A stretch of DNA of 64,000 nt from Leucoraja ocellata (Eukaryota), in NCBI GenBank assembly GCA_036785375.1, contig JAWMAR010001626.1, forward strand, positions 62,001 to 126,000, written 5' to 3'. Shown piece by piece: positions 1 through 43,704 of this stretch. Position 1 is the first letter of the stretch; each line of letters opens with the position of its first letter. Position numbers and translations under genes: made by a program. The notes beneath the pieces were generated by a model. The model made no database searches and was not told where the DNA came from. It worked only from the letters and a program-made list of their open reading frames with translations.

Positions 1-305
1 TTCCACTGGCCCAAGAGCTCTATCTAACTCTCTTAAATCCATCCAGTGACTTGGCCTCCACTTCCCTCTGTGGCAGGGAATTCCACAAATTCACAACTCT
101 CTGGGTGAAAAAGTTTTTTCTCATCTCTGTCTTAAATGGCTTCCCTTTATTCTAAGACTATGGCCCCTGGTTCTGGACTCACCCAGCATTGGGAACATTT
201 TTCATACATCTACCTTGTCCCAGTTCCTTTTATAATTTTATATGTTTCTATAAGATATCCCCTCATTCTTCTAAACTCCAGTGAATACAAGCATAGTCTT
301 TTTCA
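1..305 (-). mobile_element. CR1/HER1-type LINE fragment inserted in an Ig exon (paralog of 36275-36705)
   Basis: Reverse complement of the CR1 ORF2 C-terminus (RVVNLWNSLP-type sequence); abuts Ig exon sequence at ~306. Confidence 0.85.
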
Positions 306-422
306 GTTCCCTCAGCTGACAGGGAAGGATGCTGGGGTCTATCAGTGTGTGTGGGGTCTATCAGTGTGTGGCGGAGAATGACCATGGGACAGCAGAGAGG
401 GATGTGACCCTCACTGTAGAAT
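306..422 (+). pseudogene. 3' half of a disrupted C2-set Ig pseudo-exon of the left Siglec paralog
   Basis: FPQLTGKDAGVYQCV...AENDHGTAERDVTLTVE then GTGAGT donor at 423; 19-bp tandem duplication (333-351/352-370) frameshifts it; CR1 inserted upstream. Confidence 0.9.
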
Positions 423-899
423 GTGAGTAGACACACACTGTCATGTCTATGTAAAGGCAGATGGTTTATTGGCCCATGAGAGATGCTGGAATTCACTAAC
501 ACACACACTAGAACCTATGTCCTTTGGTCCTCGATTCACCTACTCTGGGCAAGAGACTTGGTGCGTCTACCCGATCTATTTCCTCTCATGATTTTAAACA
601 CCTCTATAAGATCACCCCTCATCCTCCTGCACTCCAAGGAAGAGAGTTCTAGCCTGCTCAACCTTTCCCTATAGCTCAGGCCCTCTAGTCCTGGCCACAT
701 CCTCATGAATCTTCGCTGCACCCTTTCCTGCTTGACAACATACTCCTATATTTCTCTCGCCTCTTCTAAGATGAGGAAGATTAGATAAAATTATTTGAAG
801 CATTGTGTGCAGGTTCTGGTCACCCCATTACAGGAAGGATGTGGTCCAGGGTGCACAACGCTGCCTAGTTTTAGAGAGTATTACCAATAAGGAATTTTA

Positions 900-1215
900 A
901 GGGGGGCACACAGTGGTTCAACGGTAGAGTTGCTGCCTCACAGCACCAGAGAGCCAGGTTTGAATCCTCACCTACGGGTGCTTGTCGGTACGGAGTTGGC
1001 AAGTTCATCCCATAACCTACGTGGGTTTTCTTCAGGTGCTCCCGGTTTCCTCCCACACTCCAAAGATATACAGGTGTGCAGGTTAATTGGCTGGGTATAT
1101 TTGGTAAATTGTCCCTAGTGTGTTGCAGGATAGTATATGTGTGGGGATCGCTGGCCGGCGTGGACATGGTGGGCCGAAGGGCCTGTTTCGCGCTGTATCT
1201 CTAAACTAAACTAAA
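900..1215 (+). mobile_element. tRNA-derived SINE (HE1/V-SINE-like)
   Basis: A/B-box-like head, conserved GGTTTCCTCCCAC core, LINE-like tail ending (CTAAA)n; inverted paralog at ~32255-32560. Confidence 0.85.
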
Positions 1216-1519
1216 GAAGAGGTTGGATAGACTTTCTCTGGGAGTTCATGTTCACAAGTGATGGGAGCACAATAAGTCCATTCGGCCCATCAAGTCTACA
1301 CTGCATTCGATCATGGGCTGATCTATTTCTCCCTCCCTGCCCCATTCCCCTGTCTTCACCCCAAAACCTCTGACATCCGTACTAATCAATAATCTATCTC
1401 TCTCTGCCTTAAATATAACCACTGACTTGGCCTCCACTGCTGTCTGTGGCTAAGAATTCCACAGATTCACCACCCAGTTGAAAGGCTGAGGGGAGACCTG
1501 ATAGAAAATATAAAACTAT

Positions 1520-2415
1520 TAGACCAAGTGCAGACCCGTTGGGTCTGTTCCCCCAACGTGCGGTTGTGGTGGGGGGGGGGGGGGGGGGGAGAGGGGGGGT
1601 TTAGGGGAGGGACGGTGGGGAGAGGGGATGGAGGTGAGAAAAAGAGAGGAGAGAGAGAGGAGGGGGGAGAGGAGAGGGGGGAGAGGAGAGGGGGGTAGAG
1701 GAGAGGGGGGGGCAGAGGAGCGGGGGAGGAGGGGGAGAGAGAGAGAGAGAGAGGAGGGGGGGGAGAGAGAGGGGGGGGAGAGGGAGGGAGAGGAGGGGAG
1801 GAGAGAGGGAGAGAGGAGAGGGGAGAGGGGAGAGGGGAGAGAGGAGGAGGGGAAGGGGAGAGGGGGAGAGAGGAGAGGGGGGAGAGGAGAGGGGGAGAGG
1901 AGAGGGAGAGAGGAGAGAGGGGGGAGAGAGAGGAGGGGGGAGGGGGGGGGGGGGAGGAGAGAGGGGGGGGGGGGGAGGAGAGAGGGAGAGAGGGGTGGGG
2001 GGGTTTAGAGAGAGAGAACCCAAACCCCCAAACAACCATTTTGCAGGCAGTGTTTTTTTTCTTCAAACTAACCATAACCATATTTTCATTTTCAAACCAA
2101 ATTAAGGGTACTTACTCACAGCTGTGTAGACATTTGTTCAGTCATTCAGAGCTCTGACCTCCATCTTGTAGAGACTGATTGAGGCACACCACTTCCTGGT
2201 TTTTATAGTCCCTCCCCCTCCCACCAGCAGGAGCAGCAGAAAGAATGGGGAATTTTGTAAAAACATTAATATCTCTGTCATATTTCATCGACGGGAAAAA
2301 TCCTCGGCACACATGCGGCGGAGGGGGGCTCTGAGTGAGGTGGCCATAAATTCTCTCGGAAATCGCAGCACAGATGGCCAAAACCGGTCAAGAACAGAGT
2401 TTTAGTAATATAGAT
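1520..2415. mobile_element. Non-autonomous Helitron/Helentron-like insertion with central G/A-rich satellite
   Basis: Absent from the right arm (empty site AAAACTAT|GAGTTGC near 31950); no TSD; 5' hairpin CAGACCCgttGGGTCTG; ends TAGTAATATAGAT. Superfamily assignment is inference. Confidence 0.55.
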
Positions 2416-2544
2416 GAGTTGCATTGATAAGGTAGACAGTCAGAATCTTTTTCACATGGTGCAAATGTCAAGGTTGAGAAAGCAGAGCTTTAAGGTGAGC
2501 GGGGAAAATTGTAAAGGAGATGTGCGGGGCAACTTTTACAATAC

Positions 2545-3165
2545 GATACGACACGATAGAACTTTCTTTATTCCTGGAGAGAACTAAAAACACAAAATAC
2601 ACAAACACAAAAAACTTGAAATATGAAATTAAAGTGACGAGTGGAGCCTTGGGGGCTGTGCAAAGATTACGTGGGAGGGGGGTGGTGGGGAGGCAAGTCA
2701 GTCTCAGTCTACACTATGACAGAAGGGGGAGGAGTTGTATAGTTTGATAGCCACAGGGAAGAAGGATCTCCTGTAGCGTTCTGTGCTGCATCTTGGTGGA
2801 ACCAGTCTGTTGCTGAATGTGCTCCTCAGGTTGAACAATGTGTCACGGAGGGGGTGAGCTGTATTGTCCAGGATGCTCCACAGTTTGAGGAGCATCCTCC
2901 CCTCCAAGACCAAACTCCTGTGAATCCAACTCCGCCCCCAGGATGGAGCCGGCCTTCCTGATGAGCTTGTTAATCCCATTGGCATCCGCAGCCTTCGCCC
3001 TGTTGCCCCGGCACACGGCAGCGAAGAAGATGGCACTGGCCACCACCGATTAGTAGAACATCTGCAGCTTCTTGCTGCAGATGTTGTAGCAGCGGAGCCT
3101 TCTCAGAAAGCTCTGTCCCTTCTTGTACAGGGCCTCAGGGTTCTTGGATCAGTCCCGTTTACTGA
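2545..3165 (-). mobile_element. Rex1/Babar-like LINE 3' fragment (paralog 30310-30930, +)
   Basis: ORF ...NKLIRKAGSILG...TERYRRSFFPVAIKLYN; short tandem-repeat tail. Confidence 0.7.
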
Positions 3166-4059
3166 AGATAGACACAAAATGCTGGAGCAGACAATGCTGG
3201 AGAAACTCAACGGGTGAGGCAGCATCTATGGAGCGAATGAAATGGGCAACCTTTCGGGTCGAGGCCCTTCAGACTGATGTGTGAAAAAGTTACCCCTCAG
3301 ATTCCTATTAAATCTTATCCCCTTCACGTTGAACCTATGTCCTCCGGTGTTCGATTCCCCTACTCTGGGCAAGAGACTCTGCGCATCTACCGGATCTAAT
3401 CCTCTCATTATTTTATATACAATATGTCTGCGTTACAGTTTAGTTTAATGTCATGTTTACCGAGCCACAGTGAAAAGCTTTTGTTGTGTGCTAACCAGTC
3501 GGTGTACAGACCATACATGATTACAATCAAGCTGTTTACAGTGTTTAGATACACGATAAGGGAATAATATTTAGTGCAAGGTAAAGGCAGCAAAGTTCGA
3601 TCAAGGATAGACCGAGGGTCAACAATGAGGTAGATAGTAGTTCAGCACTGCTCTCTGGTTGTGGTGGGATGGTTCAAGGTGTATCTGTGGTGCGTTTAGT
3701 TCAGTTTAGCTTATTGTCACGTGTACCGAGGTACAGTGAAAAGCTTTAGTTGTGTGCTAACCGCAAGAAATTGCATAAAGTTGTGGACATAGCCCAGACC
3801 ATCGCACAATCCAACCTCCCTACCATCGACTCCATCTACACCTCACGCTGCCTCGACAAGGCCAGCAGCATTATCAAGGGCCAGTCTCACCCCGGCCACT
3901 CCCTCTTCTCGGAAATCACTTTTAACACATAGGGGGGGGGATACAATTTCCTGGAGGCCTGATGACAAGACAATGTCTACGACAAGCTACACCTAGTCGA
4001 CGATTAATATGGTTTAATCTACAATTTGAGTGGGAGAAGGGAAAATCAGAAATGTCAGC

Positions 4060-4465
4060 AGCATTTAGAAGGATGAGAGGCAATCTTATTGAAACATGTA
4101 AGATTGTGAAGGGATTGGACACTAGGGGCAGGAAACATGTTCCCGATGTTGGGGGACTCCAGAACCAGGGGCCACAGTTTAAGAATAAGGGGTCGGCCAT
4201 TTAAAACGGAGATGAGGAGAAACGCTTTTACCCAGAGAATTGTGAATCTGTGGAATTCTCTGCCGCAGAAAGCAGTGGAGGCCAATTCAATGGATGCTTT
4301 CAAGATACAGTTAGATAGCGCTCTGAAAGATAGCAGAGTCAAGGGATATGGTGAGAAGACAGGAACGGGGTACTGAATGTGGATGATCAGCCATGATCAC
4401 ATTGAATGGCGGTGCTGGCTCGAAGGGCCAAATGGCCTACTCCTGCACCTATTGTCTATTGTCTT
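4060..4465 (+). mobile_element. CR1/HER1 LINE 3' fragment
   Basis: ORF SRTRGHSLRIRGRPFKTEMRRNAFTQRIVNLWNSLPQ plus conserved 3' UTR. Confidence 0.85.
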
Positions 4466-5493
4466 GAATCTTCTCTGCACTCTTTCCAGCTTCCTTCCTA
4501 GAGCAGTGTGACTAAAGCTGGACGCAATATCTCAAATGCGGTCTCACCAACGTCTTGCACAACAACTAGACTCTAACATCTGCGGCAGGCAAGATATCAT
4601 TGAGTCATAGTGACATCGCATGAAAACAGGCCCATATCCGTGTGAACATCCTCTCATAGTGTTATACTGATACATTGTGGAAACAGGTCCTTTGGCCCAA
4701 CTTGTCCACACCAGCCAACATGCCCCAGTGACACTAGTCCCACCTGCCTGTGCTTGGTTCATATCCCTGCAACCCAGTCCTATCCATGCACCTGTATAAC
4801 TGTTTTGTAAATGTTGGGATAGTCTCTGCCTCAACGGCCTCCTCTGGCAGCACAATCCATACACCCACCACCCACTGTGTGGAAAAGTTACCCCTTAGAT
4901 TCCTATTAAATCTTTTCCCCCTCACCTTAAACCTATGCATTCTGATGTTCGATTCCGCTACTCTGGGCAAGAGACGTGTGAATCTACCCGATCTAATCCA
5001 CTCATGATTTATACACTACTATAAGACTACGTTACAGTTTAGTTTATTGTCATGTTTACCGAGCTACAGTGAAAAGCTTTTATTGTGTGCTAACCAGTCA
5101 GTGTACAGACCACACATGATTACAATCAGGCTGTTTACAGTATTTAGATACATGATAAGGGAACTGGTGTGAAAACGCACATCTCCAGATCCAGGGACAG
5201 TTTCTTCCCAGCTGTTATCAGGCCATTCTACCACAATTAGGGAGCAGTCCTGAACTACTATCTACCTCATTGGTGACCCTCGGACTATGTTTGATCGGAC
5301 TTTGCTGGCTTTACCTTGCACTAAACCTTATTCCCTTTGTTCTGTATCTGTACACTGTGGACAGCTCGATTGTAATCATGTATTGCCTTTCCGCTGACTG
5401 GATAGCACGACACAAAAGCATTTCACTGTACCTTGTTACACGTGACAATAAATTAAACTGTAAAAACTGAAAACACACCTCTTGTTTTTACAG

Positions 5494-5590
5494 ATAATGG
5501 CTTCAGTATTTGGAAGGCAGTTTTGCTTACAGCAGGGATAATACTGATGGCTGTGCTAGCTGGATTCATCATCTACAAGTATATACTGCG
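5494..5590 (+). CDS. Transmembrane exon of the left Siglec-like gene
   Basis: Acceptor cttgtttttacag, donor gtaagt; phase 1 to 2; (Y)NGFSIWKAVLLTAGIILMAVLAGFIIYKYIL(R) gives a ~20-aa hydrophobic helix followed by basic residues. Confidence 0.88.
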
Positions 5591-6514
5591 GTAAGTTTCA
5601 ATAAATCCACATTTTTACTTCCAAATCCATCTCTTTGTCATCTGCTTATGACTGCTTCTGCCAGGCTAACTCCTGTTCACAGACACAAAGTGCTGGAGTA
5701 ACTCAGCGGGTCAGGCAGCATCTCTGGAGAACATGGACAGGTACAAAGTGCTGGAGTAACTCAGCAGGTCAGGCAGCAACTCTGGGGATTCAGGAATAGG
5801 TGACATTTCGGGTCGGGACCTTCTTCAGACTGAAAGGTTGAGAAAGTTAGAACAAATCAGAGCCAGCAACAGATGGCCTTTAGACTGTTGTGAGCCATTT
5901 TGGGCCCCATATCTGAGGGAGAATGTGCTGGCTCGGGAGAGGGTCCAAAGGAGGTTTACGAGAATGATTAACATATGATGAGTGTTTGACACTTACTGGG
6001 CCTGTACTAGCTGGAGTTTAGAAGGATGAGGGGAAGACCTCATTGATATTTAATGAATAGTGAATGGCCTGGATAGAGTGGATGTGGAGAGGATGTTTCC
6101 ACTAGTGGGAGAGTGAGTTTAGGACCAGAGGCCACAGCCTTAGAATTAAAGGACTACCTTTAGGAAGAAGAGTAGGAGTTTCTTCAGTCAGAGGGTGGTG
6201 AATCTGTGTAATTCTTTGCCACAGAAGGCTGTGGAGGCCAAGCCAATCAATATGTTTAAGGCAGAGATAAATAGGTTATTGATCAGTATGGGTGTCAGGG
6301 GTTATGGGGAAAAAGGCAGGAGAATGGGATTAGGAGGAAGAGTTAGATCAGTCATGATTGAATGGCACAGTAGACTTGATGGGCCGAATGACTTCATTCT
6401 GCTCCTATCATTAATAACCTCATCACTTTATGACTAACGTCTAATACAACTGCAACTTTATACTTGGACTTTGCTGATGTGCTGTAAACTTGGTGTGATC
6501 TTCTGTAGCTGCAG

Positions 6515-6581
6515 GAGGGAAGATGCTTCAGGAAACCAAGACACCAATGTGATCTACTGCCCACACTCTGCCACCAATCAG
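6515..6581 (+). CDS. Juxtamembrane cytoplasmic exon of the left Siglec-like gene
   Basis: Acceptor ctgcag, donor gtagtg; 67 nt, phase 2 to 0, compatible with both flanking exons; REDASGNQDTNVIYCPHSATNQ; conserved in the paralog at 29028-29094. Confidence 0.8.
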
Positions 6582-7124
6582 GTAGTGGAACTTTGTATTT
6601 AATCTCAATTTAAGATGAAACAAATGTGGGTACAAAAAGCTGGAGTAACTCAGTGGAACAGGCAGAATCTCTGGAGAGAAGGAACAGGTGATGTTTCGGT
6701 CGAGACTCGAGGGGCCTGAGCTACAGGGAGAGGTTGAGGAGGCTGGGACTCTATTCCTTGGAGTGCAGGGGGATGAGGGGTGATCTTATAGATGTGTATA
6801 AAATCATGAGAGGAATAGATCGGGTAGATGCACAGAGTCTCTTGCCCAGAGTAGGGGAATCGAGGACCAGAGGACATCGGTTCAAGGTGAAGGGGGAAAA
6901 AATTTAAGGGGTTACTTTTTCACACAAAGGGTGGTGCGTGTATGGAACGAGCTGCTGGAGGAAGTAGTTCAGGCTGGGACTATCCCAACGTTTAAGAAAC
7001 AGTTAGAAAGGTACATGGACCAAGCGCAGGCAGGTGGGACTAGTGTAGCTGGACATGTTGGCCGGTGTGGGCAAGTTGGGCAGAAGGGCCTGTTTCCACA
7101 ATGGATGACTCTATATAGACGACG

Positions 7125-7470
7125 ATGTAGAGAGAGATAAAGAACAATGAATGAAAGATAGATGTAAACAAAGTAACGATGATAAAGGAAACAGGCAACT
7201 GTTAGTGGTTTGTTGGGTGAAAATGAGAAGCTGGTGCGACTTGGGTGGGGGAGGGATGGAGAGAGAGGGAACACAGGGCTACCTCAAGTGAGGGAAATCA
7301 ATGTTCATATCACTGGGCTGTAAGCTGCCCAAACGGAATATGTGATGCTGGTCCTCCAATTTGTGTTTAGCCTCACTCTGTCAATGGAGGCGACCGAGGA
7401 CAGAAAAGTCAGTGTGGGAAGGGGAATTAAAGTATTTAGCAACCGGGGGTATGAATATTGATTTATCTAA
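7125..7470 (-). mobile_element. Penelope-like element fragment (GIY-YIG C-terminus); paralog ~28120-28470
   Basis: Encodes KLEDQHHIFRLGSLQPSDMNIDF, similar to the PLE endonuclease end. Confidence 0.65.
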
Positions 7471-7873
7471 CTATGTGAGAGTGTGTGAGTGTGAGAGTGG
7501 GTGTGAGAGAGAGAGAAAGTTTGAGAGAGGGGGAGACGGGGCGAGAGAGGGAGAGAGAGAGAGTGGTTGAAAGTGCGAGTGTGAGAGACACAGTGCCTGA
7601 GTGTGAGCGAGTGAGAGAAAGAGGAGAGGGAGAAAGGGGGAGAGAGAAAGTGTGAAACTGCAAGGGAGAGGGAGAGGGAGAGGGAGAGAAAGTGAGAGAG
7701 GGGGAGAGAGAAGGAGAGCGAGAGTGTGTGAGAGGAGAACATCAACAACATGGCTGAACCTGGGTCTGTGGGAGTACAGGAGTTGTGAACCTTCTCGCTG
7801 ATGGTATTAAATGCCGGGCCACACTGCTCTGTACTAAACCCACAACTGCCCGTCTGCTTCCCTTTACTTCCAG

Positions 7874-8065
7874 AGCACGGGGAGTGGAGAGAACGGGCCG
7901 GCCCCAGTGGAGCGGAAAGAAGGAGGGGAATCAGGAGAGGGGGAAGAGCAAGCGGTCGTGTACGCCGACATGCAGGAGGTGCTGAGCAGCGGAGACACCG
8001 GGCACAGTGGCGAGGGGGTGGAATATGCGGAGCTCTGGTTCCAGTCCAAGCAGGGGAAGGGGTAG
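7874..8065 (+). CDS. Terminal cytoplasmic exon of the left Siglec-like gene with ITIM/ITIM-like motifs
   Basis: Acceptor cctttacttccag, phase 0; STGSGENGPAPVERKEGGESGEGEEQAVVYADMQEVLSSGDTGHSGEGVEYAELWFQSKQGKG*; VEYAEL fits the V/I/L/S-x-Y-x-x-L/V ITIM consensus. Confidence 0.88.
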   Translation, partial: STGSGENGPAPVERKEGGESGEGEEQAVVYADMQEVLSSGDTGHSGEGVEYAELWFQSKQGKG

Positions 8066-8321
8066 GTGGGAGGATGGAGGGAGGGGTGGTGAGGAGGGAG
8101 AGGCGATCGGGAGAGAGCGCTGCACCAGCCTTAACTACCTTGGGTTTCATAGATTAATTAACCCTCTGTAGATGAAATAGTGGGATAACATAGAACTAGT
8201 GTGTGAACGGATGACCGATGGTCGGTGCGGACTCGGTGGGCTGAAGGGCCTGTTTCCCCGCTGTATCTCTTTAAAAAAGCCTTTGTTCTTTAGAACCCAG
8301 ACTGTTCCGCGGGTAACTATT

Positions 8322-10953
8322 GATTTTTTTGATTTTTTTAAAAGAATAGAATAAGAAAACGAAGTTAGATAGTAAAGGATAGAAAGATGTGAAATATATA
8401 GCGTGTGAAGAAAGAAAACGAGTAAATGAAGAAAGTTGAGAGAGAAAATAGAGAAAAGAAAAGAAAATAAAAAAAGAAAAGGAGATCATTATTTATAATC
8501 TTGACCAACCCTCGTCCAGTCCTGAAACAGTTATTTTTTACAATTGTGTTGCACCATATGATTCCAAAAAAACGACGAATGGAGACCAACTCGTTATGAA
8601 TTGGTCTGATTTATCCATTAGGAGGAATCGCATTTCCTCAAGATGAGCGGTGTGCAACATACTTGCAATCCACATTTTAAGCGTTGGTATTGATGTACCC
8701 TTCCAAAATTTAAGTATTAATTTTTTTGCTATTATTAAACCATAGTTAAGGAATAGATTTTGAGATGTGTTCAATTTATTCCCATCTTCCATTACACCAA
8801 ATATAATCATTTCAGTATTAGGTTCCATTCTTGTCTTGAATAATTTTGTAAATATTTCAAAAATATCATTCCAAAATCTATAAAGTTTTATGCAGGAAAC
8901 TAAGGAGTGTGTTTTATAGTTGCCTTTTGGGCTAGACATTTATCACAAGTGGCGGATATATTTGGATAAAATTTGTTCAATCTTGTTTTTGAATAATATA
9001 ATCTATGTACAATTTTAAATTGTATTACATTATGTCTTACATTAATTGAACATTTGTGAATATATATCAGGTATTTTTCCCATTTAACCTTAGTAATTTT
9101 TATCATTAGTTCCCGTTCCCACTCTTCTCTAAGTACCTCTGTCGATGGTAGGTCTATATTTAGAATACTATTATATAAATATGATATTAATTTTTGTGAG
9201 TCAGCTTCAATATTCATTGCTTCTTCCAATGTCAGGAGTTACTTTTTGATATCCTTGTACAGGTACAGGTATATATTTTTTCACAAAGTCGCAAATCTGA
9301 AGATATTTAAAATATTGGTTGTTTTTCAATTTAAATTTTAATTGTAGTTGTTAGAATGATAGTAGGTTTCCCATTTCGTACATATCCCCGATCCTTCTAA
9401 TTCCGAGACTTTCCGATTGGTTATATGTTTTATCAATAAGAGATGGTTTAAATAAAGGGTTATTCGCAATTGGCATTAACAGTGATAGATTTCTTAATTT
9501 TAAAGATAATTTTATTTGTTTCGAAATTCTTATTGTACCATATATAATTGGGTTCTTCTTATATATTGTGTTATTCCGGTTTTTTGGGGAAAAGAGGATC
9601 GTTCCTATATTACAAGGATGGCAATCCTCCTTCTCCATTTTTATCCATTCTTTCTGTTGGGTAGAACTATCCAACCAATAAATCATATTCTTAATATGCA
9701 CTGCCCAGTAATAATACATAAAATTCGGAAGTGAATTTCGAAAGTGAAAGTCCCCCGACCTCTTTTGGTTTACATAAGTGTTTTTTTGTGATTCTATGTG
9801 ATCTATAGTCCCAAATATAATTTGTAATGTTAGAGACTAATTTTTTTTAAAAATATTTTGGTATATATACCGGTATAGACTGAAATACGTATAGTAATTG
9901 TGGTAGGAAGATCATTTTTATTGCATTTATTCTACCTAATAATGATAAGGGAAGTGCTTTACAAAATTTAATCAGCGTATTAAGTTTATTTAATAAAGGT
10001 ATGAAATTAGCGTTGAATAATGCTTTATATTTTCTAGTAATCTGAATACCCAAATATTTAAATTTTTCTGTTGCGATTTTAGAGGGGAACTTCAATAAGT
10101 GTGTAGGTTCTTGAGGTTTTAATGTCATGATTTCACTTTTGTTCCAGTTTATTCTATATCCAGAAAAAGATCCAAATTCCTCTATTAAGTTTAATAAATT
10201 TGGTATGCTTGTTTGTGACTTTGTAATGTATAAACGTATATCGTCTGCATATAATGAGATTTTATTCTTTGCGTCCCTGGTATTATAGCCCTGAATATTC
10301 GGATGAATTCTTATACTTTCAGCCAGGGGTTCTATCATAAGGGCAAATAGCAGGGGTGATAGTGCACATCCCTGCCTATTACCCCTTGATAGTTTACATT
10401 TTTGAGATAACATGTTATTAGTTAAAATTCTTGCCATCGGTTTATCATATAATAATTTTACCCATGTTATAAAATTCCCATATTAAATTTTTGTAGTACT
10501 TTACATAAGTATTGCCACTCTACCTGATCAAATGCTTTCTCTGCATCCAAAGAAATAATTGATATATCTTCTTCCTCTACTTTATGCGAGTACATTATAT
10601 TAAACAGGCGTCTCAGATTATTAAATGAGTATCTTTTAGGTATAAACACCGTTTGATCAGGGTTTATCAATTTACTAATATATTTGCTTAATCTTCTTGC
10701 TAAAATCTTTGCTAAAATTTTCTGATCTGTATTTAAAAGTGATATAGCTCTGTACGAGCCCGGATCTTCTAAATCTTTATCTTTTTTTTGGAATAAGCGT
10801 AATAGTTGATTCTGTTAGTAGTTTGTTTTCTTTAAAAGCATGGGAGTATAAATTAAATAAATAAGGGGTCGTTATCTCCTGAATTTTTTTAATAAAATTC
10901 ATTATTAAAACCATCTGGTCCCGGTGTCTTACCATTTTTCAGCGATTTTATTG
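8322..10953 (-). mobile_element. 5'-truncated L1 LINE (ORF2 RT and C-terminus), left-arm specific
   Basis: RT motifs SLDAEKAFD, RQGCALSPLLF, YADD; A-rich 3' end; 11-bp TSD GGGTAACTATT (8311-8321/10954-10964); empty site near 27270. Confidence 0.92.
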
Positions 10954-13564: not shown

Positions 13565-13572
13565 GTGTGTAG

Positions 13573-27706: not shown

Positions 27707-29027
27707 CTGGAAGGAAAGTGAAGCAGACGGGCAGTTGGTCGGTTAGGTACAGAGCAGTGTGGCCCGGCATTTAATACCATCAGTGAGAAGGTTCACAACT
27801 CCTGTACTCCCACAGACCCAGTTCAGCCATGTTGTTGATGTTCTCCTCTCACACACTCTCGCTCTCCTTCTCTCTCCCCCTCTCTCACTTTCTCTCCGTC
27901 TCCCTCTCACTTGCAGTTTCACACTTCTCTCTCCCCCTTTCTCCCTCTCCTCTTTCTCTCACTCGCTCACACTCAGGCACTGTGTCTCTCACACTCGTAG
28001 TTTCACCCACTATCTCTCTCCCTCTCTCGCCTCGTCTCCCTCTTTCTCAAACTTTGTCTCATACTCACACCCACTCTCTCACACCCACTCTCACACTCAC
28101 ACACTCTCACATAGTTAGATAAATCAATATTCATACCCCCGGTTGCTAATACTTTAATTCCCCTTCCCACACTGACCTTTCTGTCCTCGGTCGCCTCCAT
28201 TGACAGAGTGAGGCTAAACACAAATTGGAGGACCAGCATCACATATTCCGTTTGGGCAGCTTACAGCCCAGTGATATGAACATTGATTTCCCTCACTTGA
28301 GGTAGCCCTGTGTTCCCTCTCTCTCCATCCCTCCCCACCCAAGTCGCACAAAGCTTCTCGTTTTCACCCAACAAACCACTAACAGTGGCCTGTTTCCTTT
28401 ATCATCGTTACTTTGTTTACATCTATCTTTCATTCATTGTTCTTTATCTCTCTCTACATCATCATCTATATAGAGTCATCCATTGTGGAAACAGGTCCTT
28501 CTGCCCAACTTGCCAACACCGGCCAACATGGCCCAGCTACACTAGTCCCACCTGCCTGCGCTTGGTCCATATCCCTCCAAACTTGTCCTGTCCATGTACC
28601 TTTCTAACTGTTTCTTAAACGTTGGGATAGTCCCAGCCTCAACTACCTCCTCCAGCAACTCGTTCCATACACGCACCACCCTTTGTGTGAAAAAGTAACC
28701 CCTCAGATTTTTTTCCCCTTCACCTTGAACCTATGTCCTCTGGTCCTCGATTCCCATACTCTGGGCAAGAGTCTCTGTGCATCTACCTGATCTATTCCTC
28801 TCATGGTTTTATACCCATCTATAAGATCACCCCTCATCCCCTTGTGCTCCAAGAATAGAGTCCCAGCCTCCTCAACCTCTCTCTGTAGCTCAGGCCCCTC
28901 GAGTCTCGACCGAAACATCACCTGTTCCTTCTCTCCAGAGATTCTGCCTGTTCCACTGAGTTACTCCAGCATTTTGTACCCACGTGTGTATCATCTGTAG
29001 TTGAGGTTAAATACAAAGTTCCACTAC

Positions 29028-29094
29028 CTGATTGGTGGCAGATTGTGGGCAGTAGATCACATTGTTGTCTGGGTTCCCTGAAGCATCTTCCCTC
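29028..29094 (-). CDS. 67-nt exon of the right Siglec-like gene; supplies a junction TGA when spliced to the C2 exon
   Basis: Intact AG/GT; ancestral frame REDASGNPDNNVIYCPQSATNQ; begins GAG, so upstream phase-1 T plus GA gives TGA. Confidence 0.7.
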
Positions 29095-29261
29095 CTGCAG
29101 CAAAGGAAGATCACACCAAGTGTACAGCACATCAGCAAAGTACAAGTATAAAGTTGCAGTTGTATTAGACGTTGGTCATAAAGTCGTGAGGTTATTAATG
29201 ATAGTAGCAGAATTAAGTCATTCGGCCCATCAAGTCTACTCTGCCATTCAATCATGGCTGA

Positions 29262-30225
29262 TACATAGAAACATTGTCATATGTTGATAAAATGAAGCTG
29301 CTGGGCTTGTATAGAAACATAGAAAAATAGAAATTAGGTGCAGGAGTAGGCCATTCGGCCCTTCGAGCCTGCACCGCCATTCAATATGATCATGGCTGAT
29401 CATCCAACTCAGTATCCCGTACCTGCCTTCTCTCCATACCCCCTGATCCCCTTAGCCACAAGGGCCACATCTAACTCCCTCTTAAATATAGCCAATGAAC
29501 AGGCCTCAACTACCCTCTGTGCAGAGAGTTCCAGAGATTCACCACTCTCTGTGTGAAAAAAGTTCTTCTCATCTCGGTTTTAAAGGATTTCCCCCTTATC
29601 CTTAAGCTGTGACCCCTTGTCCTGGACTTCCCTAACATCGGGAACAATCTTCCTGCATCTAGCCTGTCCAACCCCTTAAGAATTTTGTAAGTTTCTATAA
29701 GATCCCCTCTCAATCTCCTAAATTCTAGAGAGTATAAACCAAGTCTATCCAGTCTTTCTTCATAAGACAGTCCTGACATCCCAGGAATCAGTCTGGTGAA
29801 CCGTCTCTGCACTCCCTCTATGGCAATAATGTCCTTCCTCAGATTTGGAGACCAAAACTGTACGCAATACTCCATGTGTGGTCTCACCAAGACCCTGTAC
29901 AACTGCAGTAGAACCTCCCTGCTCCTATACTCAAATCCTTTTGCAATGAAAGCTAACATACCATTCGCTTTCTTTACTGCCTGCTGCACCTGCATGCCTA
30001 CCTTCAATGACTGGTGTACCATGACACCCAGGTCTCGCTGCATCTCCCCCTTTCCCAATCGGCGACCATTTAGATAATAGTCTGCTTTCCCGTTTTTGCC
30101 ACCAAAATGGATAACCTCACATTTATCCACATTATACTGCATCTGCAAACGTTTGCCAACTCACCCAGCCTATCCAAGTCACCTTGCAGTCCTCCTCACA
30201 GCTAACACTGCCCCCCAGCTTAGTG
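29262..30225 (-). mobile_element. Young CR1/HER1 LINE 3' ~950 bp occupying the place of the deleted TM-exon region
   Basis: 212-aa ORF MQYNVDKCEVIHFG...RDLGV...RVLVRPHMEYCVQFWSP; (TTTCTATG)n tail; flanks map to left-arm 6345 and 3250. Confidence 0.92.
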
Positions 30226-31014
30226 TCTATTTCCTTCGCTCCATAGATGCTGCCTCACCCGCTGAGTTTCTCCAGCATTGTCTGCTCCAGCATTTTGTGT
30301 CTATCTTCAGTAAACGGGACTGATCCAAGAACTCCGAGGCTCTGTACAAGAAGGGACAGAGCTTTCTGAGAAGGCTCTGCTCCATCAACATCTGCAGCAA
30401 GAAGCTGCAGATGTTCTACTAATCGGTGGTGGCCAGTGCCATCTTCTTCACTGCCGTGTGCCGGGGCAACAGGGCGAAGGCTGCAGACGTCAATGGGATC
30501 AACAAGCTCATCAGGAAGGCCGGCTCCATCCTGGGGGCGGAGTTGGATTCACAGTAGGTTGGTCTAGGAGGGGAGGATGGAGCTGTGGAGCATCCTGGAC
30601 AATACAGCTCAACCCCTCCGTGACACATTGGTCAACCAGAGGAGCACATTCAGCAACAGACTGGTTCCACACAGATGCAGCACAGAACGCCACAGGAGAT
30701 CCTTCTTCCCTGTGGCTATCAAACAGTACAACTCCTCCCCCTTCTGTCGTAGTGTAGACTGAGACTGACTCGCCTCCCCACCACCCCCCTCCCACGTAAT
30801 CTTTGCACAGCCCCCAAGCCTTTCCACTCGTCACTTTAATTTCATATTTAAAGTATTTTGTGTTTGTGTATTTTGTGTATTTAGTTCTCTCCTGGGATAT
30901 ATAAAGTTCTATTGTGTCGTATCGTATTGTAAAAGTTGCCCCGCACATCTCCTTTACAATTTTCCCCTCTCACCTTAGAGCTCTGCCCTCTCAACCTTGA
31001 CATTTGCACCATGT

Positions 31015-31920
31015 TAGCAGTGTTAGCTGTGAGGAGGATGCTAGGAGACTGCAAGGTGACTTGGATAGGCTGGGTGAGTGGGCAAATGTTTGGCAGATGC
31101 AGTATAATGTAGATAAATGTGAGGTTATCCATTTTGGTGGCGGAAAACAGGAAAGCAGACTATTATCTAAATGGTGGCCGACTAGGAAAAGGGGAGATGC
31201 AGCGAGACCTGGGTGTCATGGTACACCAGTCATTGAAAGTAGGCATGCAGGTGCAGCAGGCAGTGAAGTAAGCGAATGGTATGTTAGCTTTCATAGCAAA
31301 AGGATTTGAGTATAAGAGCAGGGAGGTTCTACTGCAGTTGTACAGGGTCTTGGTGAGACCACACCTGGAGTATTGCGTTTTTGGTCTCCAAATCTGAGGA
31401 AGGACATTATTGCCATAGAGGGAGTGCAGAGAAGGTTCACCAGACTGATTCCTGGGATGTCAGGACTGTCTTATGAAGAAAGACTGGATAGACTTGGTTT
31501 ATACTCTCTAGAATTTAGGAGATTGAGAGGGGATCTTATAGAAACTTACAAAATTCTTAAGGGGTTGGACAGGCTAGATGCAGTAAGATTGCTCCCGATG
31601 TTGGGGAAGTCCAGGACAAGGGGTCACAGCTTAAGGATAAGGGGGAAATCCTTTAAAACCGAGATGAGAAGAACTTTTTTCACACAGAGAGTGGTGAATC
31701 TCTGGAACTCTCTGCCACAGAGGGTAGTTGAGGCTAGTTCATTGGCTATATTTAAGAGGGAGTTAGATGTGGCCCTTGTGGCTAAGGGGATCAGAGGGTA
31801 TGGAGAGAAGGCAGGTACGGGATACTGAGTTGGATGATCAGCCATGATCATATTGAATGGCGGTGCAGGCTCGAAGGGCCGAATGGCCTACTCCTGCACC
31901 TAATTTCTATGTTTCTATGT
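31015..31920 (+). mobile_element. Young CR1/HER1 LINE 3' ~900 bp, right-arm specific
   Basis: Near-identical to 29262-30225; empty site TTTTTCACATGGTGC at ~2450; ATGT at both junctions. Confidence 0.92.
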
Positions 31921-33378
31921 GAAAAAGATTCTGACTTCTCAATGCAACTCATAGTTTTATATATTTCTATCAGGTCTCCCCCTCAGCCTTCCAATGGGTG
32001 GTGAATCTGTGGAATTCTTTGCCACAGACGGCAGTGGAGGCCAAGTCAGTGGTTATATTTAAGGCAGAGATAGATTCTTCATTAGTACGGGTGTCAGAGG
32101 CTATGGAGTGAAGGCAGGGGAATGGGGCAGGGGAGGGAGAAATACATCAGCCATGATCGAATGGCAGAGTATACTTGATGGGCCAAAAGGCCTTATTGTG
32201 CTCCCATCACTTGTGAACATGAACTCCAGAGAAAGTCTATCCAACCTCTTCTTTAGTTTAGTTTAGAGATACAGCGCGGAAACAGGCCCTTCGGCCCACC
32301 GTGTCCACGCCTGCCAGCGATCCCCACACATATACTATCCTGCACACACTAGGGACAATTTACAAATATACCAAGCCAATTAACCTGCACACCTGTATAT
32401 CTTTGGAGTGTGGGAGGAAACCGGAGCACCCGAAGAAAACCCACGTAGGTTATGGGATGAACTTGCCAACTCCGTACCGACAAGCACCCGTAGTGAGGAT
32501 TCAACCTGGCTCTCTGGTGCTGTGAGGCAGCAACTCTACCGTTGAACCATTGTGTGCCCCCCTTGAAACTCCTTATTGCTAATACTCTCTAAACTAGGCA
32601 GCGTTGTGCACCCTGACCACATCCTTCCTGTAATGGGGTGACCAGAACTGCACACAATGCTTCAAATAATTTTATCTAAACTTCCTTATCTTAGAAGAGG
32701 AGAGAGGAAATATAGGAAGTATGTTGTCAAGCAGGAAAGGGTGCAGCGAAGATTCATGAGGATGTGGCCAGGACTAGAGGGCCTGAGCTATAGGGAAAGG
32801 TTGAGCAGGCTGGGACTCTCTTTCTTGGAGAACAGGGGGATGAGGAGTGCTCTTATAGAGGTGTTTATAATCATGAGAGGAATAGATCGGGTAGATGCAC
32901 CAAGTCTATTGCCCAGAGTAGGTGAATCGACGACCAGAGGACATAGGTTCAAGGTGAAGGGGAAATTATTTAAACGGAACCTGGGCGGTGACTTTTTCAT
33001 ACAAAGGCTGGTTGTTGTATGGAATGAGCTGCCAGAGGAGGTCGCTGAGGCTGGGACTATCCCAGCGTTTAAGAAACAGACAAGTACATGGTTAGGGCAA
33101 GTTTGGAGGGATATGGGCCAAACATGGGCAGGTTGGACTAATGTAGCTGGGACATGTAGGTTGTTGAAAGCAAGTTGAGCAGTTCCCACGCTGTATCACT
33201 CTATGAATCAATGGCTCTATAGCTCTATGGCTCTATGAGAAGGCAGGAGAATGGGGTTAGGAGGGAGAGATAGATCAGCCATGATTGAATGGTGCAGTAG
33301 ATTTGACCATTCAACATTCTAATTCTGCCCCTATCATTTATGACGTTGTGAGGGATGTGTTAGTGTGTGTCTACTCAC

Positions 33379-33660
33379 ATTCTACAGTGAGGGTCACATC
33401 CCTCTCTGCTGTCCCGTGTTCATTCACCGCCACACACTGATAGACCCCAGCGTCCTGCCATGCCAGCTGAGGGAACTCCAACCACAGCTCGTTGCTGGAA
33501 TATGTTGTGTTCAGCGTGACACCAAGATGTATCCACGTCAGGTTAGATGCTGGGAAACTCTGAACGGAGCAGAGGATCGCTGCAAAGTTTCCTTCCTTTA
33601 CAATCACCCGGGAACTGTTCGCATCGGCGTGGGAAGTGATTGAGAGATTTCGTGGAGCAT
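33379..33660 (-). CDS. Siglec-like gene, intact C2-set Ig exon
   Basis: ttgtctttag/gtgagt, 282 nt, phase 1-1; YAPRNLSI...VKEGNFAAILCSVQSFPASNLTW...DAGVYQCVAVNEHGTAERDVTLTVE. Confidence 0.93.
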
Positions 33661-33761
33661 CTAAAGACAAACGAAGGTTTAAACGCGAGTTAACATGGCA
33701 GAATTCAACGCGCCAACCAGGACAGTACAGAGAGAAAAGATGAAGTACGAATGCAACTAGT

Positions 33762-33789
33762 CTGAAGAAGGGTCTCGACCCGAAACGTC
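33762..33789 (+). ncRNA. Minimal hammerhead-ribozyme-like motif within a Penelope-associated repeat
   Basis: CTGAAGA-A-GGGTC-TC-GACCC-GAAAC-GTC: CUGANGA core, stem II, GAAA and palindromic ACGT stem III; stem I weak. Confidence 0.45.
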
Positions 33790-33959
33790 ACCCATTCCTA
33801 CTCTCCAGAGATGCTGCCTGACCCGCTGAGTTACTCCATCTTTTTGAATCTATCTTTGGTTTAAACCAGCATCTGCAGTTCCTTCCTACTCATTCCGTCT
33901 GCTCCACTGTGAAATCTCCTCAAGATATGTCTACTTTGAAGAAATTCTCCTCTCTCTGA

Positions 33960-35265
33960 CGAGAGTTAGAGTCATAGGGTGATCGTGTGGAAACAGGCCC
34001 TTCAGCCCAACTTGCCCACACCGGCCAACATGTCCCAGATACACTAGTCCCACCTGCCCATAACCCTCCATATTTGTTGTATCCATGTACCTGTCTAACT
34101 GTTTTTTAAACGTTGGGATAGACACTGCCTCAACTACCTCCTCTGGCACCGTGTTCCATACACCAACTACCCTTTGTGTAAAAAGTTCCTCAGGTTCCTA
34201 TTAAATCTTTTCTCCTTCACCTTGAACCTATGTCCTCTGGTCCTCGATTCCCCTATTCTATGCAAGATACTCTGTGCATCCACTCAATCTCTTCCCCTCA
34301 TGATCTTTTCACTATAAGATCACCCCACATCCATCTGCGCTCCAAGCAATAGAGACCCAGCCTGCACAACCTCTCCCTGTAGCTCGGGCCCTCTAGTCCT
34401 TGGCAACATTCTCATAAATCTTCACTGAACCCTTTCAAGCTTGATAATATCTTTCCTGTAACATGGTGCCCAGAACTGAACACAATATTCTAAATGCGGC
34501 CTCACCAACGTCTTATACAACTGCAACATGACCTCCCAACTTCTATACTCAATACTCTGACTGATGAAGGCCAGTATGCCAAAAGGCTTTTTGACCACCT
34601 GTGACTTGATCTTCAAGGAACCTTGCACCTGCACTCCTTGATCCCTCTGCTCTACAACACTCCCCACAGGCCTACCATTAACTGTGTTGGTGCTGCTTTT
34701 GTTAGACGTCCCAAAATGCAACATCTCACATATCTCTGATTTAAATTCAATTAACCATTCATCAGCTCATCTGGCCAATGATCAAGTTCCTGCTGCAATC
34801 TTTCACAACATTGCAGTTCTGCCACACCCCCTCTCACTGCTCCCCCTCTGTGATGCCTCCTGCTCTCCGATCTTACATTCATTGTTCTTTATCTCTCTAC
34901 ATAGAAACATAGAAATTAGGTGCAGGAGGAGGCCTTTCAGCCCTTCGAGCCAGTACCGCCATTCATTGTGATCACGGCTGATCGTCCCCAATCAATAACC
35001 CGTGCCTGCCTTCTCCCCATTTCCCTTGACTCCACTAGCCCCTAGAACTCTATCTAACTCTCTCTTAAATCCATCCAATGATTTGGCCTCCACTGCGCTC
35101 TGTGGCAGGGAATTCCACAAATTCACAACTCTCTGGGTGAAAAAGTTATTTCTCACCTCAGTCTTAAATGGCCTCCCCTTTATTCTAAGACTGTGGCCCC
35201 TGGTTCTGGACTCGCCCAATATTGGGAACATTTTTCCTGCATCTAGCTTGTCCAGTCCTTTTTAT
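33960..35265 (-). mobile_element. CR1-type LINE fragments in an intron
   Basis: ORFs LQLYKTLVRPHLEYCVQFWAP and SRTRGHSLRIKGRPFKTEV. Confidence 0.8.
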
Positions 35266-35914
35266 AAGGAACGAGCTGCTGGAGGAGGTAGTTGAGGCTG
35301 GGATCATTGCAACGTTTAAAAAACAGTTGGACAGGTAACATGGATAGGAGGTAGACAAAAGTGCTGGAGAAACTGAGCGGGTGGAGCAGCATCGATGGAG
35401 CGAAGGAAATAGGCAATGTTTCGGGCCAAAACCCTTCTTCAGACTGATGGACGTCAAACATGGATAGGACTTGTTTGGAGGGATATGGGCCGAAGTAGGG
35501 CAGGTGGGATGCGTGTAGATGGGGCTCATTGGCCGGTGTGGGCAAGTTGGGCCAAAGGACCTGTAACCATGCTGTAAGACTCTATGACTCTAAAGACACT
35601 GCCTGACCCACTGAGTTGCTCCACTACTTTGTGTTTAAGCAACGTGAGGAGTGACGATACATAGAGGGAGGCATTGAAGGTTTCTGGGTGGAAAGACCAA
35701 TATAATCCAACAACGTCAGGCAGAGGTGAGACAGGTTACTTACAGGTGGGGAACAAACAAGGCTGTAGATGTGGGTGGCACGGTGGCGCAGTGGGTAGAG
35801 CTCCTGCCTCACAGCGCCAGAGACCCGGGTTCAATCCTGACCACCCGTGCCTTTCTGTACGGAGTTTGCACGTTCTCCCCGTGACCTGCCTGGGTTTTCT
35901 CCGAGATCTTGAGG

Positions 35915-36002
35915 ATGTGTGTCTGTATGTGTTTGAGTGAATGAGTGCGTGTGTGTGTGTGTGAAGAGAGGGAGCGTGTGTGTGGCGATTGTTTGTGAGA
36001 GA

Positions 36003-36062
<60 letters not shown>

Positions 36063-36100
36063 GTGCATGTGTGTGTAAGTGCGAGTGCGAGTGAGAGTGT
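35915..36100. repeat. (GT)n microsatellite
   Basis: Long pure GT run at ~36004-36057 with degenerate flanks; close to the breakpoint of the left-arm deletion. Confidence 0.95.
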
Positions 36101-36176
36101 TAGTGAATTCCAGCATCTCTCATGGGCCAATAAACCATCTGCCTTTACATAGACATGACAGTGTGTGTCTACTCAA

Positions 36177-36888
36177 ATTCTACAATGAGGGTCACATCCC
36201 TCTCAGCTGTCCCATGGTCATTCTCCACTACACACTGATAGACCCCAGCATCCTTCCCTGTCAGCTGAGGGAATTGTAAAGAATAGGCTTGTATTCACTG
36301 AAGTTTAGAAGGATGAGGGGATGTCTTATTGAAACATATAAAATTATAAAAGGACTGGACAAGGTAGATGCACGAATGTTCCCAATGTTTCCCAGAACCA
36401 GGGTCTATAGTCTTAGAATAAAGGGGAAGCCATTTAAGGCTGAGGTGAGAAAAACCCTTTTCACCCAGAGAGTTGTGAATTTGTGGAATTCCCTGCCAGA
36501 GAGAGCACTGGAGGCCAAGTTACTCGATGGATTTAAGAGAGAGTTAGATAGAGCTCTAGGGGCCAGTGGAATCAAGGGATATGGGGAGAAGACAGGCACG
36601 GGTTATTGATTGGGGACGATCAGCCATGACCACAATGAATGGCGCTGCTGGCTCGAAGGGCCGAATGGCCACCTCCTGCACCTATTTTCTACGTCTATGT
36701 CTATGTCCATCCACAGCTCGTTGCTGGAACGCGTTGTGTTCAGCGTGACACCGATGTCTCCACATCAGGTTAGACGCTGGGAAACTCTGGAGGGAGCAGA
36801 GGATCGCTGCAGAGTTTCCTTCCTTTATACTGACCCAGGAATTGTTCACATTGTCGGGGGAAGTGATTGAGAGATCCTGGGGGGGTGT
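36177..36888 (-). pseudogene. Dead C2-set Ig pseudo-exon, paralogous to 33379-33660, split by CR1 (36275-36705)
   Basis: TPQDLSITSPDNVNNSWVSIKEGNSAAILCSLQSFPASNLMW... and FPQLTGKDAGVYQCV..NDHGTAERDVTL; extra C in the C-run, 2-nt deletion, CR1 insertion, donor GT>TT. Confidence 0.9.
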
Positions 36889-43690: not shown

Positions 43691-43704
43691 TATCAGCAAA
43701 CGGT

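Follow-up and report, generated by a model that had tools for sequence, protein, structure and literature searches.

Tail-to-tail Siglec-like genes in the skate Leucoraja ocellata: one of 23 copies of an old inverted duplication, with arms likely reshuffled across the array

A stretch of 64,000 nucleotides from Leucoraja ocellata (the window) carries two long arms in inverted orientation, which raises the question of what such a structure records. The original prediction was a single ancient palindrome of more than 36 kb, with transposable elements (TEs) layered so that they can be read as a stratigraphy. Our analysis points, with good probability, to a different account: the window holds one of 23 tail-to-tail two-gene cassettes for Siglec-like immune receptors, which sense sugars. 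The cassettes descend from an old inverted duplication, and their arms have likely been reshuffled array-wide, a process that likely drives birth-and-death evolution of the receptor array.

The arms abut at 17138/17550, with 411 nt between them and an arm identity of 92-96%. Between them, 11 inverted blocks (block identity 87-97%) form a collinear chain:

17047-17138 with 17641-17550, inverted, 94.6% identity
15781-15980 with 18522-18323, inverted, 89% identity
14837-15683 with 19367-18520, inverted, 94% identity
14752-14841 with 23043-22954, inverted, 97% identity
13747-14363 with 24229-23612, inverted, 96% identity
13602-13740 with 24452-24319, inverted, 90% identity
10954-13603 with 27278-24613, inverted, 95% identity
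6347-8320 with 29262-27269, inverted, 92% identity
2454-3243 with 31014-30229, inverted, 94% identity
508-1522 with 32953-31948, inverted, 94% identity
1-509 with 36571-36090, inverted, 87% identity

Because the unique exons cyt1 and cyt2 (cytoplasmic exons) lie inside this chain, the inverted match is not one of dispersed repeats, which contradicts the possibility that a self-comparison might give dispersed repeat matches only. The inverted duplication of this Siglec-like locus is both real and old. The collinearity, the apex and the short spacer of the predicted palindrome hold, but only 8,923 of the 17,138 left-arm bases are paired with the right arm, the remainder having no partner. Likewise, the arms are collinear at the window edge as proposed, but they continue outside it: the inversion occupies 31.4-127.4 kb of contig C1626, about 31 kb past the left edge. 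Its main parts are as follows.

1..17138, plus strand: left arm, with the 3' half of Siglec-like gene A, continuing upstream to about C1626:31,400
17047..17138, plus strand: left apex arm, 94.6% identical to 17550-17641, about half of it dispersed repeat
17136..17323, unstranded: zero-loop hairpin of 188 bp with 94-nt arms 88% identical, a high-copy repeat
17324..17549, unstranded: unique spacer
17550..64000, minus strand: right arm, with Siglec-like gene B, extending to about window position 65,400

Dispersed repeat at the apex comprises the 188-bp hairpin, a putative Penelope-type inverted end, and about half of the 92-bp apex arm. In an Rfam scan of window positions 1-40000, to E 0.05, neither spacer nor hairpin matched an RNA family. 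All 25 apex candidates in the assembly were scored; two are partial and 23 are near-identical full copies (spacer identity 98-100%, on 12 contigs), a count that may include both haplotypes. From the arm counts given below, two short arms and two apex copies lying at the ends of contigs are excluded. Every spacer copy with both flanks in hand (19/19) lies between convergent Siglec-like 3' exons, and one minus-strand frame of the spacer is open in 22 of the 23 copies.

The duplication is old, as had been claimed, because the apex is also found in an outgroup copy in the assembly (about 9-13% diverged) and, with about 90-92% identity, in contigs of two other organisms. No uninverted (pre-inversion) allele was found, every other spacer match being an apex too. 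The spacer/right-arm junction is crossed by short-read contigs of runs X12, X15 and X17, from three studies: the X12 contig, which may come from the source species or sample, shows 1 difference in 244, and the X15 and X17 contigs show 24 differences in 311. One X17 contig crosses the left-arm/hairpin junction; no single contig spans the whole apex. Contig depth over the spacer in X12 was kept out of the copy-number estimate; it was 270, where four of the other listed pieces had about 23-35 and two had 129-269.

The left gene has the following exons in the window, with its leader, V-set and C2 exons lying 2.6-1.2 kb upstream:

1..422, plus strand: 3' end of the third-Ig pseudo-exon, CR1-split and frameshifted
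5494..5590, plus strand: transmembrane (TM) exon, AG/GT, open, hydrophobic core without a charged residue
6515..6581, plus strand: cytoplasmic exon 1
7874..8065, plus strand: last exon, bearing the ITIM-type tyrosine motifs VVYADM and VEYAEL

From these exons, the product of gene A is predicted to be an inhibitory receptor of 350 aa with an ITIM-type tail, the same in length and layout as the Amblyraja CD33-like model P0013 (350 aa). VEYAEL recurs in 27 of the 28 full-length (192-nt) last exons of the family.

In Siglecs, the F-strand Arg of the V-set is essential and extra cysteines are characteristic. Here the Pfam domains are V-set, C2-set_2 and I-set, with an N-terminal V-set followed by a C2-set as in Siglecs. 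The best PDB matches are MAG, sialoadhesin, CD33 and Siglec-8, and the F-strand Arg falls at the same alignment position as in MAG and sialoadhesin. Among 19 unique open V exons this position is Arg in 17 and Lys in 2, and three Cys are invariant. As far as match scores can tell whether the genes group with mammalian CD33-related Siglecs or with MAG or sialoadhesin, MAG comes out ahead (67 bits against 55 with the V-set, and 190 against 110-137 with P0019). At least 114 V-set matches, split hits included, occur in the assembly. Automated skate models called 'CD33-like', 'Siglec-12-like' and 'MAG-like' (Amblyraja P0013 and P0020; Leucoraja P0016 and P0019) belong to the same gene family, with V-sets 67-77% identical and with TM and tail nearly identical to P0013; their names are automatic and say nothing of cassette architecture, copy number or variant classes.

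The V exon is the most divergent block (8-10% vs about 3%), and the two window V exons are 91.5% identical. Its pN/pS reached 2.20 (codon bootstrap 1.48-3.40; 19 unique open exons), a value from non-independent pairs that recombination can inflate, compared with 0.63 for C2 and 0.62 for Ig3. Clustered genes, a fast V-set and an ITIM-type tail are traits like those of CD33-related Siglecs. Ligand-binding exons homogenised between partners, as in paired receptors, were not seen. Four of 37 TM exons, none of them in the window, carry an Arg, with the tail cut before the distal ITIM and the proximal Tyr kept. Two of these four copies have an open V exon. By their sequence, the Arg-TM variants may be a candidate activating class.

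The right gene differs in its membrane anchor:

39691..39730, minus strand: leader exon
38861..39223, minus strand: V-set exon, with the conserved F-strand Arg
37878..38171, minus strand: C2-set exon
36090..36911, minus strand: third-Ig pseudo-exon, CR1-split
33379..33660, minus strand: intact third Ig exon (Ig3), each continuation of which stops at once
29262..30228, minus strand: hybrid CR1, with the 5' junction of CR1-b (site corresponding to left 3243) and the 3' junction of CR1-a (site corresponding to left 6347), the TM exon between them gone
29028..29094, minus strand: cytoplasmic exon 1
27527..27706, minus strand: last exon, its tyrosine motifs unreachable by any frame from Ig3

What had been read as a simple CR1 insertion at 29262-30225 is instead a CR1-a/CR1-b hybrid marking the deletion of the TM exon. 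CR1-a occurs alone in C478_104 and C428_475 and CR1-b alone in C428_92, and all three arms keep the TM exon. The parent copies have the same orientation and are about 2% apart (98% identical) over about 900 bp. A hybrid that takes one junction from either parent repeat is what a repeat-mediated (NAHR) deletion leaves, and the crossover was called from 5 internal diagnostic sites (2+2 parents), the hybrid being b-type at 4 of the 5. The TM exon was thus likely removed by recombination between two jumping genes, CR1-a and CR1-b, both parent states being preserved; the anchor-less arm would then have spread to the 7 arms that now carry the hybrid. An independent second CR1-mediated loss in C2094_67 was ruled out, since this arm has a short internal deletion and a site pattern common to the other hybrids. 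In the right arm of C1051_215, TM and cyt1 were lost in a separate event. A fixed design of receptor left and decoy right is also ruled out: the TM exon is retained in 13 of 20 right arms and missing from one left arm.

Gene B is predicted to encode a secreted three-Ig protein of 326-328 aa, which would serve as a soluble binder or decoy. All three routes end cleanly at this length, and the automated Amblyraja model P0020 (326 aa) has the same ending. Leader, V, C2 and Ig3 remain open with canonical splice sites in 5 of the 7 hybrid-CR1 arms, and these arms are 0.3-2.7% apart, compared with 2.5-3.8% for their partner arms. On the other hand, with the same cassette history, gene B could be a decaying pseudogene that travelled by neutral arm replacement, no soluble Siglec being made or selected. 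We regard this as a serious possibility, a little short of probable. Decay is common: a V or C2 exon is broken or absent at 11 of the 29 gene starts covered, so gene B may be no more than another decaying copy, and in two of the 7 hybrid-CR1 arms V or C2 is not intact. Splicing from Ig3 to cyt1 would place the stop codon about 65 nt upstream of the final junction, with possible NMD. Neither AATAAA nor ATTAAA occurs in the first 1.5 kb after Ig3, and at the position of the N-terminal Trp of most copies and of MAG this V-set carries Ser. For genes A and B alike, RNA runs gave no splice joint among the rows listed: in one of four runs, from a related species, C2 and V showed exon-restricted depth of 1-10x; in RNA run X18 neither the spacer nor the Siglec exons were covered. 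No RNA run was among the matches listed in the sequencing-run search.

We compared arms across the cassettes at increasing distance from the apex. The distinction between left and right arms weakens outward. At the apex the mean left-right distance was 5.8%, compared with 2.0% left-left and 0.2% right-right; the three values were 4.2, 3.4 and 3.1% at 2 kb, 3.3, 2.5 and 3.5% at cyt2, and 3.3, 3.3 and 3.1% at 16 kb. In 12 of 12 blocks, own-partner and other-partner distances were equal to within 0.7 points. Because this distinction fades outward and own partners are no more alike than arms of different copies, exchange appears to be array-wide, and arm identity is therefore no clock. Single arms show the same pattern. 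The right arm of C1984_78 carries the left-marker L1 described below, and the left arms of C1051_215 and C1051_391 have an empty site there; C1051_215 left and C478_316 right differ by 0.30% over 20.8 kb, compared with 3.5% between their partner arms. Arms were likely swapped among copies by recombination across the array. A 519-column tree agrees with this: the 39 family arms grouped apart from the outgroup left and right arms (98/82), on a short outgroup branch of 4 vs 1 informative sites, and the left-right distance was 4.9% in the family and 9.4% in the outgroup.

Concerted evolution by arm-to-arm gene conversion within each palindrome, as on the Y chromosome, is an unlikely alternative source of this homogeneity. 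It would account for family arms being 4-5% apart compared with 9-12% for outgroup arms. However, own arms were not more alike than paralogous arms, as they are in Y/X palindromes, the sole slight own-partner excess being in the C2 block (2.7 vs 3.1%, 6 pairs). Nor did a sliding comparison of the window arms, suggested earlier as a check for conversion over exons, give any exon-level identity peak, identity being 94-96% throughout.

The TEs bear on whether the locus is one palindrome frozen by asymmetric deletions, with arm divergence and TEs recording its age:

1520..2415, unstranded: unclassified insertion, in only 2 left arms, post-amplification
8322..10953, minus strand: L1-like insertion with an 11-bp TSD, left-arm marker (20/22 left, 1/21 right)
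13171..13564, unstranded: hAT-like MITE of 394 bp with 16-bp TIR and 8-bp TSD, within a block common to both arms
19367..22954, unstranded: ancestral segment absent from the window left arm, present in outgroup left arms and in 3/22 left arms
23041..23612, unstranded: L1-like insertion remnant, right-arm marker (20/21 right, 2/22 left)
31015..31920, plus strand: young CR1 insertion, right-type sub-lineage

The marker counts confirm that both L1s are younger than the inversion, and the TIRs, TSD and location of the MITE agree with its reading as a shared insertion. The rest of the layering fared less well. The 1520-2415 insertion came after amplification, and the CR1 at 31015-31920 and the hybrid at 29262 belong to right-type sub-lineages, not to plain arm-specific layers. 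The rule that a shared element is older than the inversion, applied to the pseudo-exon CR1 and the RT-in-SINE block, fails more than about 9 kb from the apex because left and right arms are homogenised there. (The names Tx1 and L2 come from the original prediction alone; the elements match Pfam RT/zf-RVT.) Several segments seen only on the right, such as 19367-22954, represent the ancestral state, which the outgroup left arm retains and most left arms have lost by deletion; the CR1 near 19726, a candidate shared derived marker of exchange, was discarded as this undeleted ancestral state. Instead of two layers there are three: pre-inversion, inversion to amplification, and post-amplification. 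A single frozen palindrome fits the collinear chain with its short spacer, the two arm-marking L1s and the apex common to other organisms, but it is refuted as a full account by 23 copies with swapped arms, a left/right difference that vanishes outward and three of five 'arm-specific' elements being sub-lineage events, and we consider it most improbable. An artefact of assembly, from chimeric fold-back reads or from haplotigs left uncollapsed, which fragmented contigs and one 99.8% pair over 15 kb (the distal right arms of C2127 and the window) might suggest, is very unlikely for the structure, the exact count being less settled, given that the arms differ by 4-8% and in insertions with TSDs, that a single contig holds as many as 4 apexes, that left arms are separated by 1.8% or more, and that contigs cross the junctions as described above.

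For the cassette, the sequence shows that an inverted duplication with the 411-bp spacer predates the split from the outgroup copy and the two other organisms. The two arm-marking L1s and asymmetric deletions followed, and then amplification of whole cassettes in both orientations. With both orientations present, the left arm of one cassette is a direct repeat of the right arm of another, which would make crossing-over or conversion possible; unequal crossing-over or conversion may then have homogenised everything outside the asymmetric core. Finally, the V-set exons may have diversified by positive selection, as the pN/pS suggests.

Parts of this history have counterparts elsewhere. Sub-clusters A and B of the eutherian CD33-related Siglecs are attributed to inverse duplication (Cao et al. 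2009, cited in bioRxiv 10.1101/051953), proposed to stabilise cluster size (bioRxiv 10.1101/051953). Siglec genes are arranged through inverted duplication in both lineages, but the eutherian case is one large multi-gene inversion, whereas the skate has a two-gene tail-to-tail unit, at most about 10% diverged and copied 23 times. The suggested convergence therefore holds as independence in time and is otherwise a loose parallel. SIGLEC11/SIGLEC16 and SIGLEC5/SIGLEC14 are similar as adjoining paralogues homogenised by recombination, with TM/tail variants and fusion or deletion alleles (PMC5701461, PMC4042635). SIGLEC11 and SIGLEC16 are head-to-head and about 9 kb apart, with local conversion confined to ligand-binding exons; the skate genes are tail-to-tail with array-wide exchange, a V-set that diverges most and two inhibitory-type genes in most cassettes. 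Fold-back inverted duplications also have arms around a short unique spacer, which is single-copy and 766 bp to 70 kb (PMC3907307), compared with 411 bp here, or 226 bp without the hairpin. They are de novo events whose microhomology can be read against a reference allele, whereas the skate apex, for which a fold-back origin as first proposed is one possibility, is fixed and amplified.

We found no paper on a large Siglec-like array in cartilaginous fish in Creative Commons PMC and bioRxiv, subscription reviews lying outside these sources. The passages seen of review PMC13358205 do not contain 'shark' or 'cartilaginous', and the part seen of a literature listing held nothing relevant on soluble Siglecs. 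One caution follows for multicopy arrays generally: neither the identity of its arms nor the TEs that they share can date a palindrome within such an array. A bolder reading, which we hold to be doubtful, is that a Siglec system of three classes (inhibitory, Arg-TM activating and secreted decoy) arose independently in skates from an invertible two-gene cassette as the unit of amplification and shuffling, the CR1-made secreted form sweeping under selection. The locus reveals a large, fast-evolving Siglec-like array in a cartilaginous fish. Its inverted unit, amplified and shuffled, is a counter-example to the stabilising role proposed for the mammalian inverted duplication, and its retrotransposon pair offers a deletion, with both parent states preserved, that likely turned a membrane receptor gene into a candidate gene for a secreted form.

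Comparison of the window with itself supported the original prediction that two inverted arms meet at 17138/17550 and stay collinear to the window edge: an 11-block inverted collinear chain ran from this apex out to the left edge, with 87-97% BLAST identity. Counted on gap-free columns, arm identity was 94-96% throughout, and the gap between the arms was 411 nt. With flanks included, the inversion ran past the window (C1626:62001-126000 of a 3.44-Gb assembly), extending from ~31.4 kb to ~127.4 kb of the whole contig, but only 8,923 of the 17,138 bases in the left arm were partnered. A second apex in the same orientation lay 67 kb downstream on C1626.

The arms carry two tail-to-tail Siglec-like genes:

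Gene A, left arm, + strand: leader, V-set and C2 exons just upstream of the window; CR1-split pseudo-exon; transmembrane (TM) exon, 5494-5590; cytoplasmic exons cyt1 and cyt2.
Gene B, right arm, - strand: leader, V, C2, pseudo-exon, intact third Ig exon (Ig3), no TM exon, cyt1, cyt2.

All splice sites of gene A were canonical. With the pseudo-exon skipped, it is predicted to encode 350 aa, matching the automated Amblyraja CD33-like model P0013 in length and layout, and its tail motifs are VVYADM and VEYAEL. In gene B, splicing Ig3 to cyt1 or cyt2 gave a stop codon right at the joint, which would end the protein at 326 aa, and read-through past Ig3 reached a stop after 328 aa. By Pfam and PDB comparison, the domains belong with those of MAG, sialoadhesin and CD33; the scores favour MAG, so CD33r orthology is not established. 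The first (leader-V) intron of gene B holds a 33-bp VNTR of 9 copies (39358-39658). Upstream of the gene, a degenerate retroelement-like stretch and frames resembling transposase occupy 50630-54058 and 54225-55444; three frames scanned there had no Pfam match. A weak KRAB-box match (58404-58664; E 0.006, below the Pfam cut-off) lies inside the duplicated arm.

We then considered how often this cassette of apex and arms occurs. The unique part of the spacer gave 23 full matches at 98-100% identity and 2 partial ones (25/25 candidates scored), the full matches lying on 12 contigs in both orientations, with at most 4 per contig. The flanks of all 23 copies were examined up to a length limit or the contig end, and in all 19 with both flanks sufficiently long, Siglec 3' exons faced the apex from both sides. 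Since the closest pair of left arms was 1.8% apart (median 2.8%), the copies are not simple haplotig duplicates. The count may include both haplotypes; one distal right arm was 99.8% identical to the window across 15 kb. Genome-wide, at least 114 V-set matches, some being split hits, were found when the best 150 of 161 candidates were scored, and the nearest named proteins come from Amblyraja and Leucoraja, which marks the animal as a skate. More Siglec-like V-set subfamilies (56-71% identity), lacking the spacer, occur on C508, C1048, C3195 and many small contigs.

The missing TM exon of gene B can be traced through TM-keeping sister arms. One element, CR1-a, sits at the site matching left 6347 in C478_104 and C428_475 (TSD about 7 bp), and another, CR1-b, at the site matching left 3243 in C428_92; they share an orientation and are ~2% apart across 900 bp. 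The window's CR1 combines the 5' junction of b with the 3' junction of a and matches b at 4 of 5 internal sites. In the simplest account of these junctions, it is a hybrid produced by recombination between the two, which would have deleted everything between them, TM exon included. The hybrid was present in 7 arms only 0.3-2.7% apart, whereas their partner arms are 2.5-3.8% apart, so the TM-less arm moved recently onto different cassettes. Loss of TM and cyt1 from an eighth arm was a separate event, and 33 of the 41 scorable arms retained the TM exon. In the window, two young CR1s (29317-30211 and 31017-31920; 95.6% identical, with a near-identical truncation point) are oriented towards one another with 800 bp between them.

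Arms have probably also been exchanged among cassettes. The left/right distance at the apex was 5.8%, against within-class distances of 2.0 and 0.2%; this excess was smaller at 2-6 kb and absent from cyt2 outward. An arm resembled its own partner no more than it did the opposite arms of other cassettes, and one left arm was 0.30% from another cassette's right arm across 20.8 kb. The left-marker L1 was found in 20/22 left and 1/21 right arms, the right-marker L1 in 20/21 right and 2/22 left arms. Of the elements originally called arm-specific, these L1s held up, while CR1 29262-30225 is the hybrid. Some right-only segments reflect left-arm deletions. Because cassettes lie in both orientations, a left arm can form a direct repeat with the right arm of another cassette, and ordinary unequal recombination between the two would produce arm swaps; the asymmetric core by the apex, with no partner for pairing, retains its handedness. 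Across 22 copies, variation was low at 17324-17641 (pi 0.9% in the spacer and 0.4% in the right apex arm; 1.7-2.7% in adjoining core blocks). Its cross-species identity is ordinary, about 90-92%. One minus-strand frame of the spacer was open in 22/23 copies.

A census of the flanking DNA covered 29 gene starts. Membrane-form exons were all open in 10, three of which require skipping another broken exon; 5 were open TM-less genes, 2 were open Arg-TM genes whose tail is cut short, 1 had an early stop in the last exon, and 11 had V or C2 broken or missing. The pN/pS of V exons was 2.20 (1.48-3.40), compared with 0.63 for C2 and 0.62 for Ig3, as pairwise values uncorrected for recombination. The N-terminal V-set Trp has a role in sialic-acid binding; the TM-less lineage has Ser (38861-39223) where most copies and MAG have this Trp, which may weaken binding. 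A 100-nt TM variant with Arg near its outer end (C478:1436651, C2420:66530, C2500:68783, C352:2332896) was always paired with a last-exon insertion, the tail stopping before the distal ITIM; these are candidate activating receptors. Ectodomains ranged from 2 up to 5 or 6 Ig domains, and at C1626:162999-181345 tandem repetition of a 4.9-kb module made up of a partial C2, the pseudo-exon and an intact Ig3 gives one gene copy four Ig3 exons. Among four RNA runs of related species, a single one gave 1-10x depth, and only over the C2 and V exons; the matches listed included no splice joint. This is a weak signal and has no bearing on the TM-less lineage.

A diverged outgroup apex on C94 and C3196 was 87-91% identical to the window. 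On C94, degenerate TM, cyt1 and cyt2 exons lead into it, and its right arm is a remnant that shares 88-90% identity with the left arm of the same copy. A tree of 519 columns separated 39 family arms from both outgroup arms (support 98/82); the outgroup left arm was no nearer to left than to right family arms, with only 4 versus 1 informative sites. Spacer and junction sequence also occurred, at about 90-92% identity, in short-read contigs of two further organisms. Because these organisms and the outgroup copy carry the apex, the inversion is older than the 4-6% arm divergence implies. Some segments confined to the right arm in the window are present in the outgroup left arm, so this asymmetry reflects deletions, not insertions. 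Such a short, unique spacer is compatible with an origin by fold-back or template switching, as in the fold-back inverted duplications described in PMC3907307; the only other spacer matches were themselves apexes, so no uninverted allele was found. Beside the left arm is a 188-bp hairpin, one of the many copies of a highly abundant repeat; it lies 226 bp off-centre and so is a doubtful seed of the inversion.

For mammalian Siglecs, an inverse duplication is summarized as one large event and a proposed stabilizer of cluster size (Cao et al. 2009, cited in 10.1101/051953); PMC5701461 describes head-to-head SIGLEC11/16 with local conversion of ligand-binding exons, and PMC4042635 conversion and fusion of SIGLEC5/14. 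Compared with these systems, the processes in the skate cassette (inverted duplication, NAHR, birth-and-death, repeat-mediated exon loss) are known, but the architecture is different. We found no paper describing a Siglec expansion in cartilaginous fish in Creative Commons PMC and bioRxiv. What makes the locus notable is the array together with the candidate secreted form, rather than the palindrome itself.
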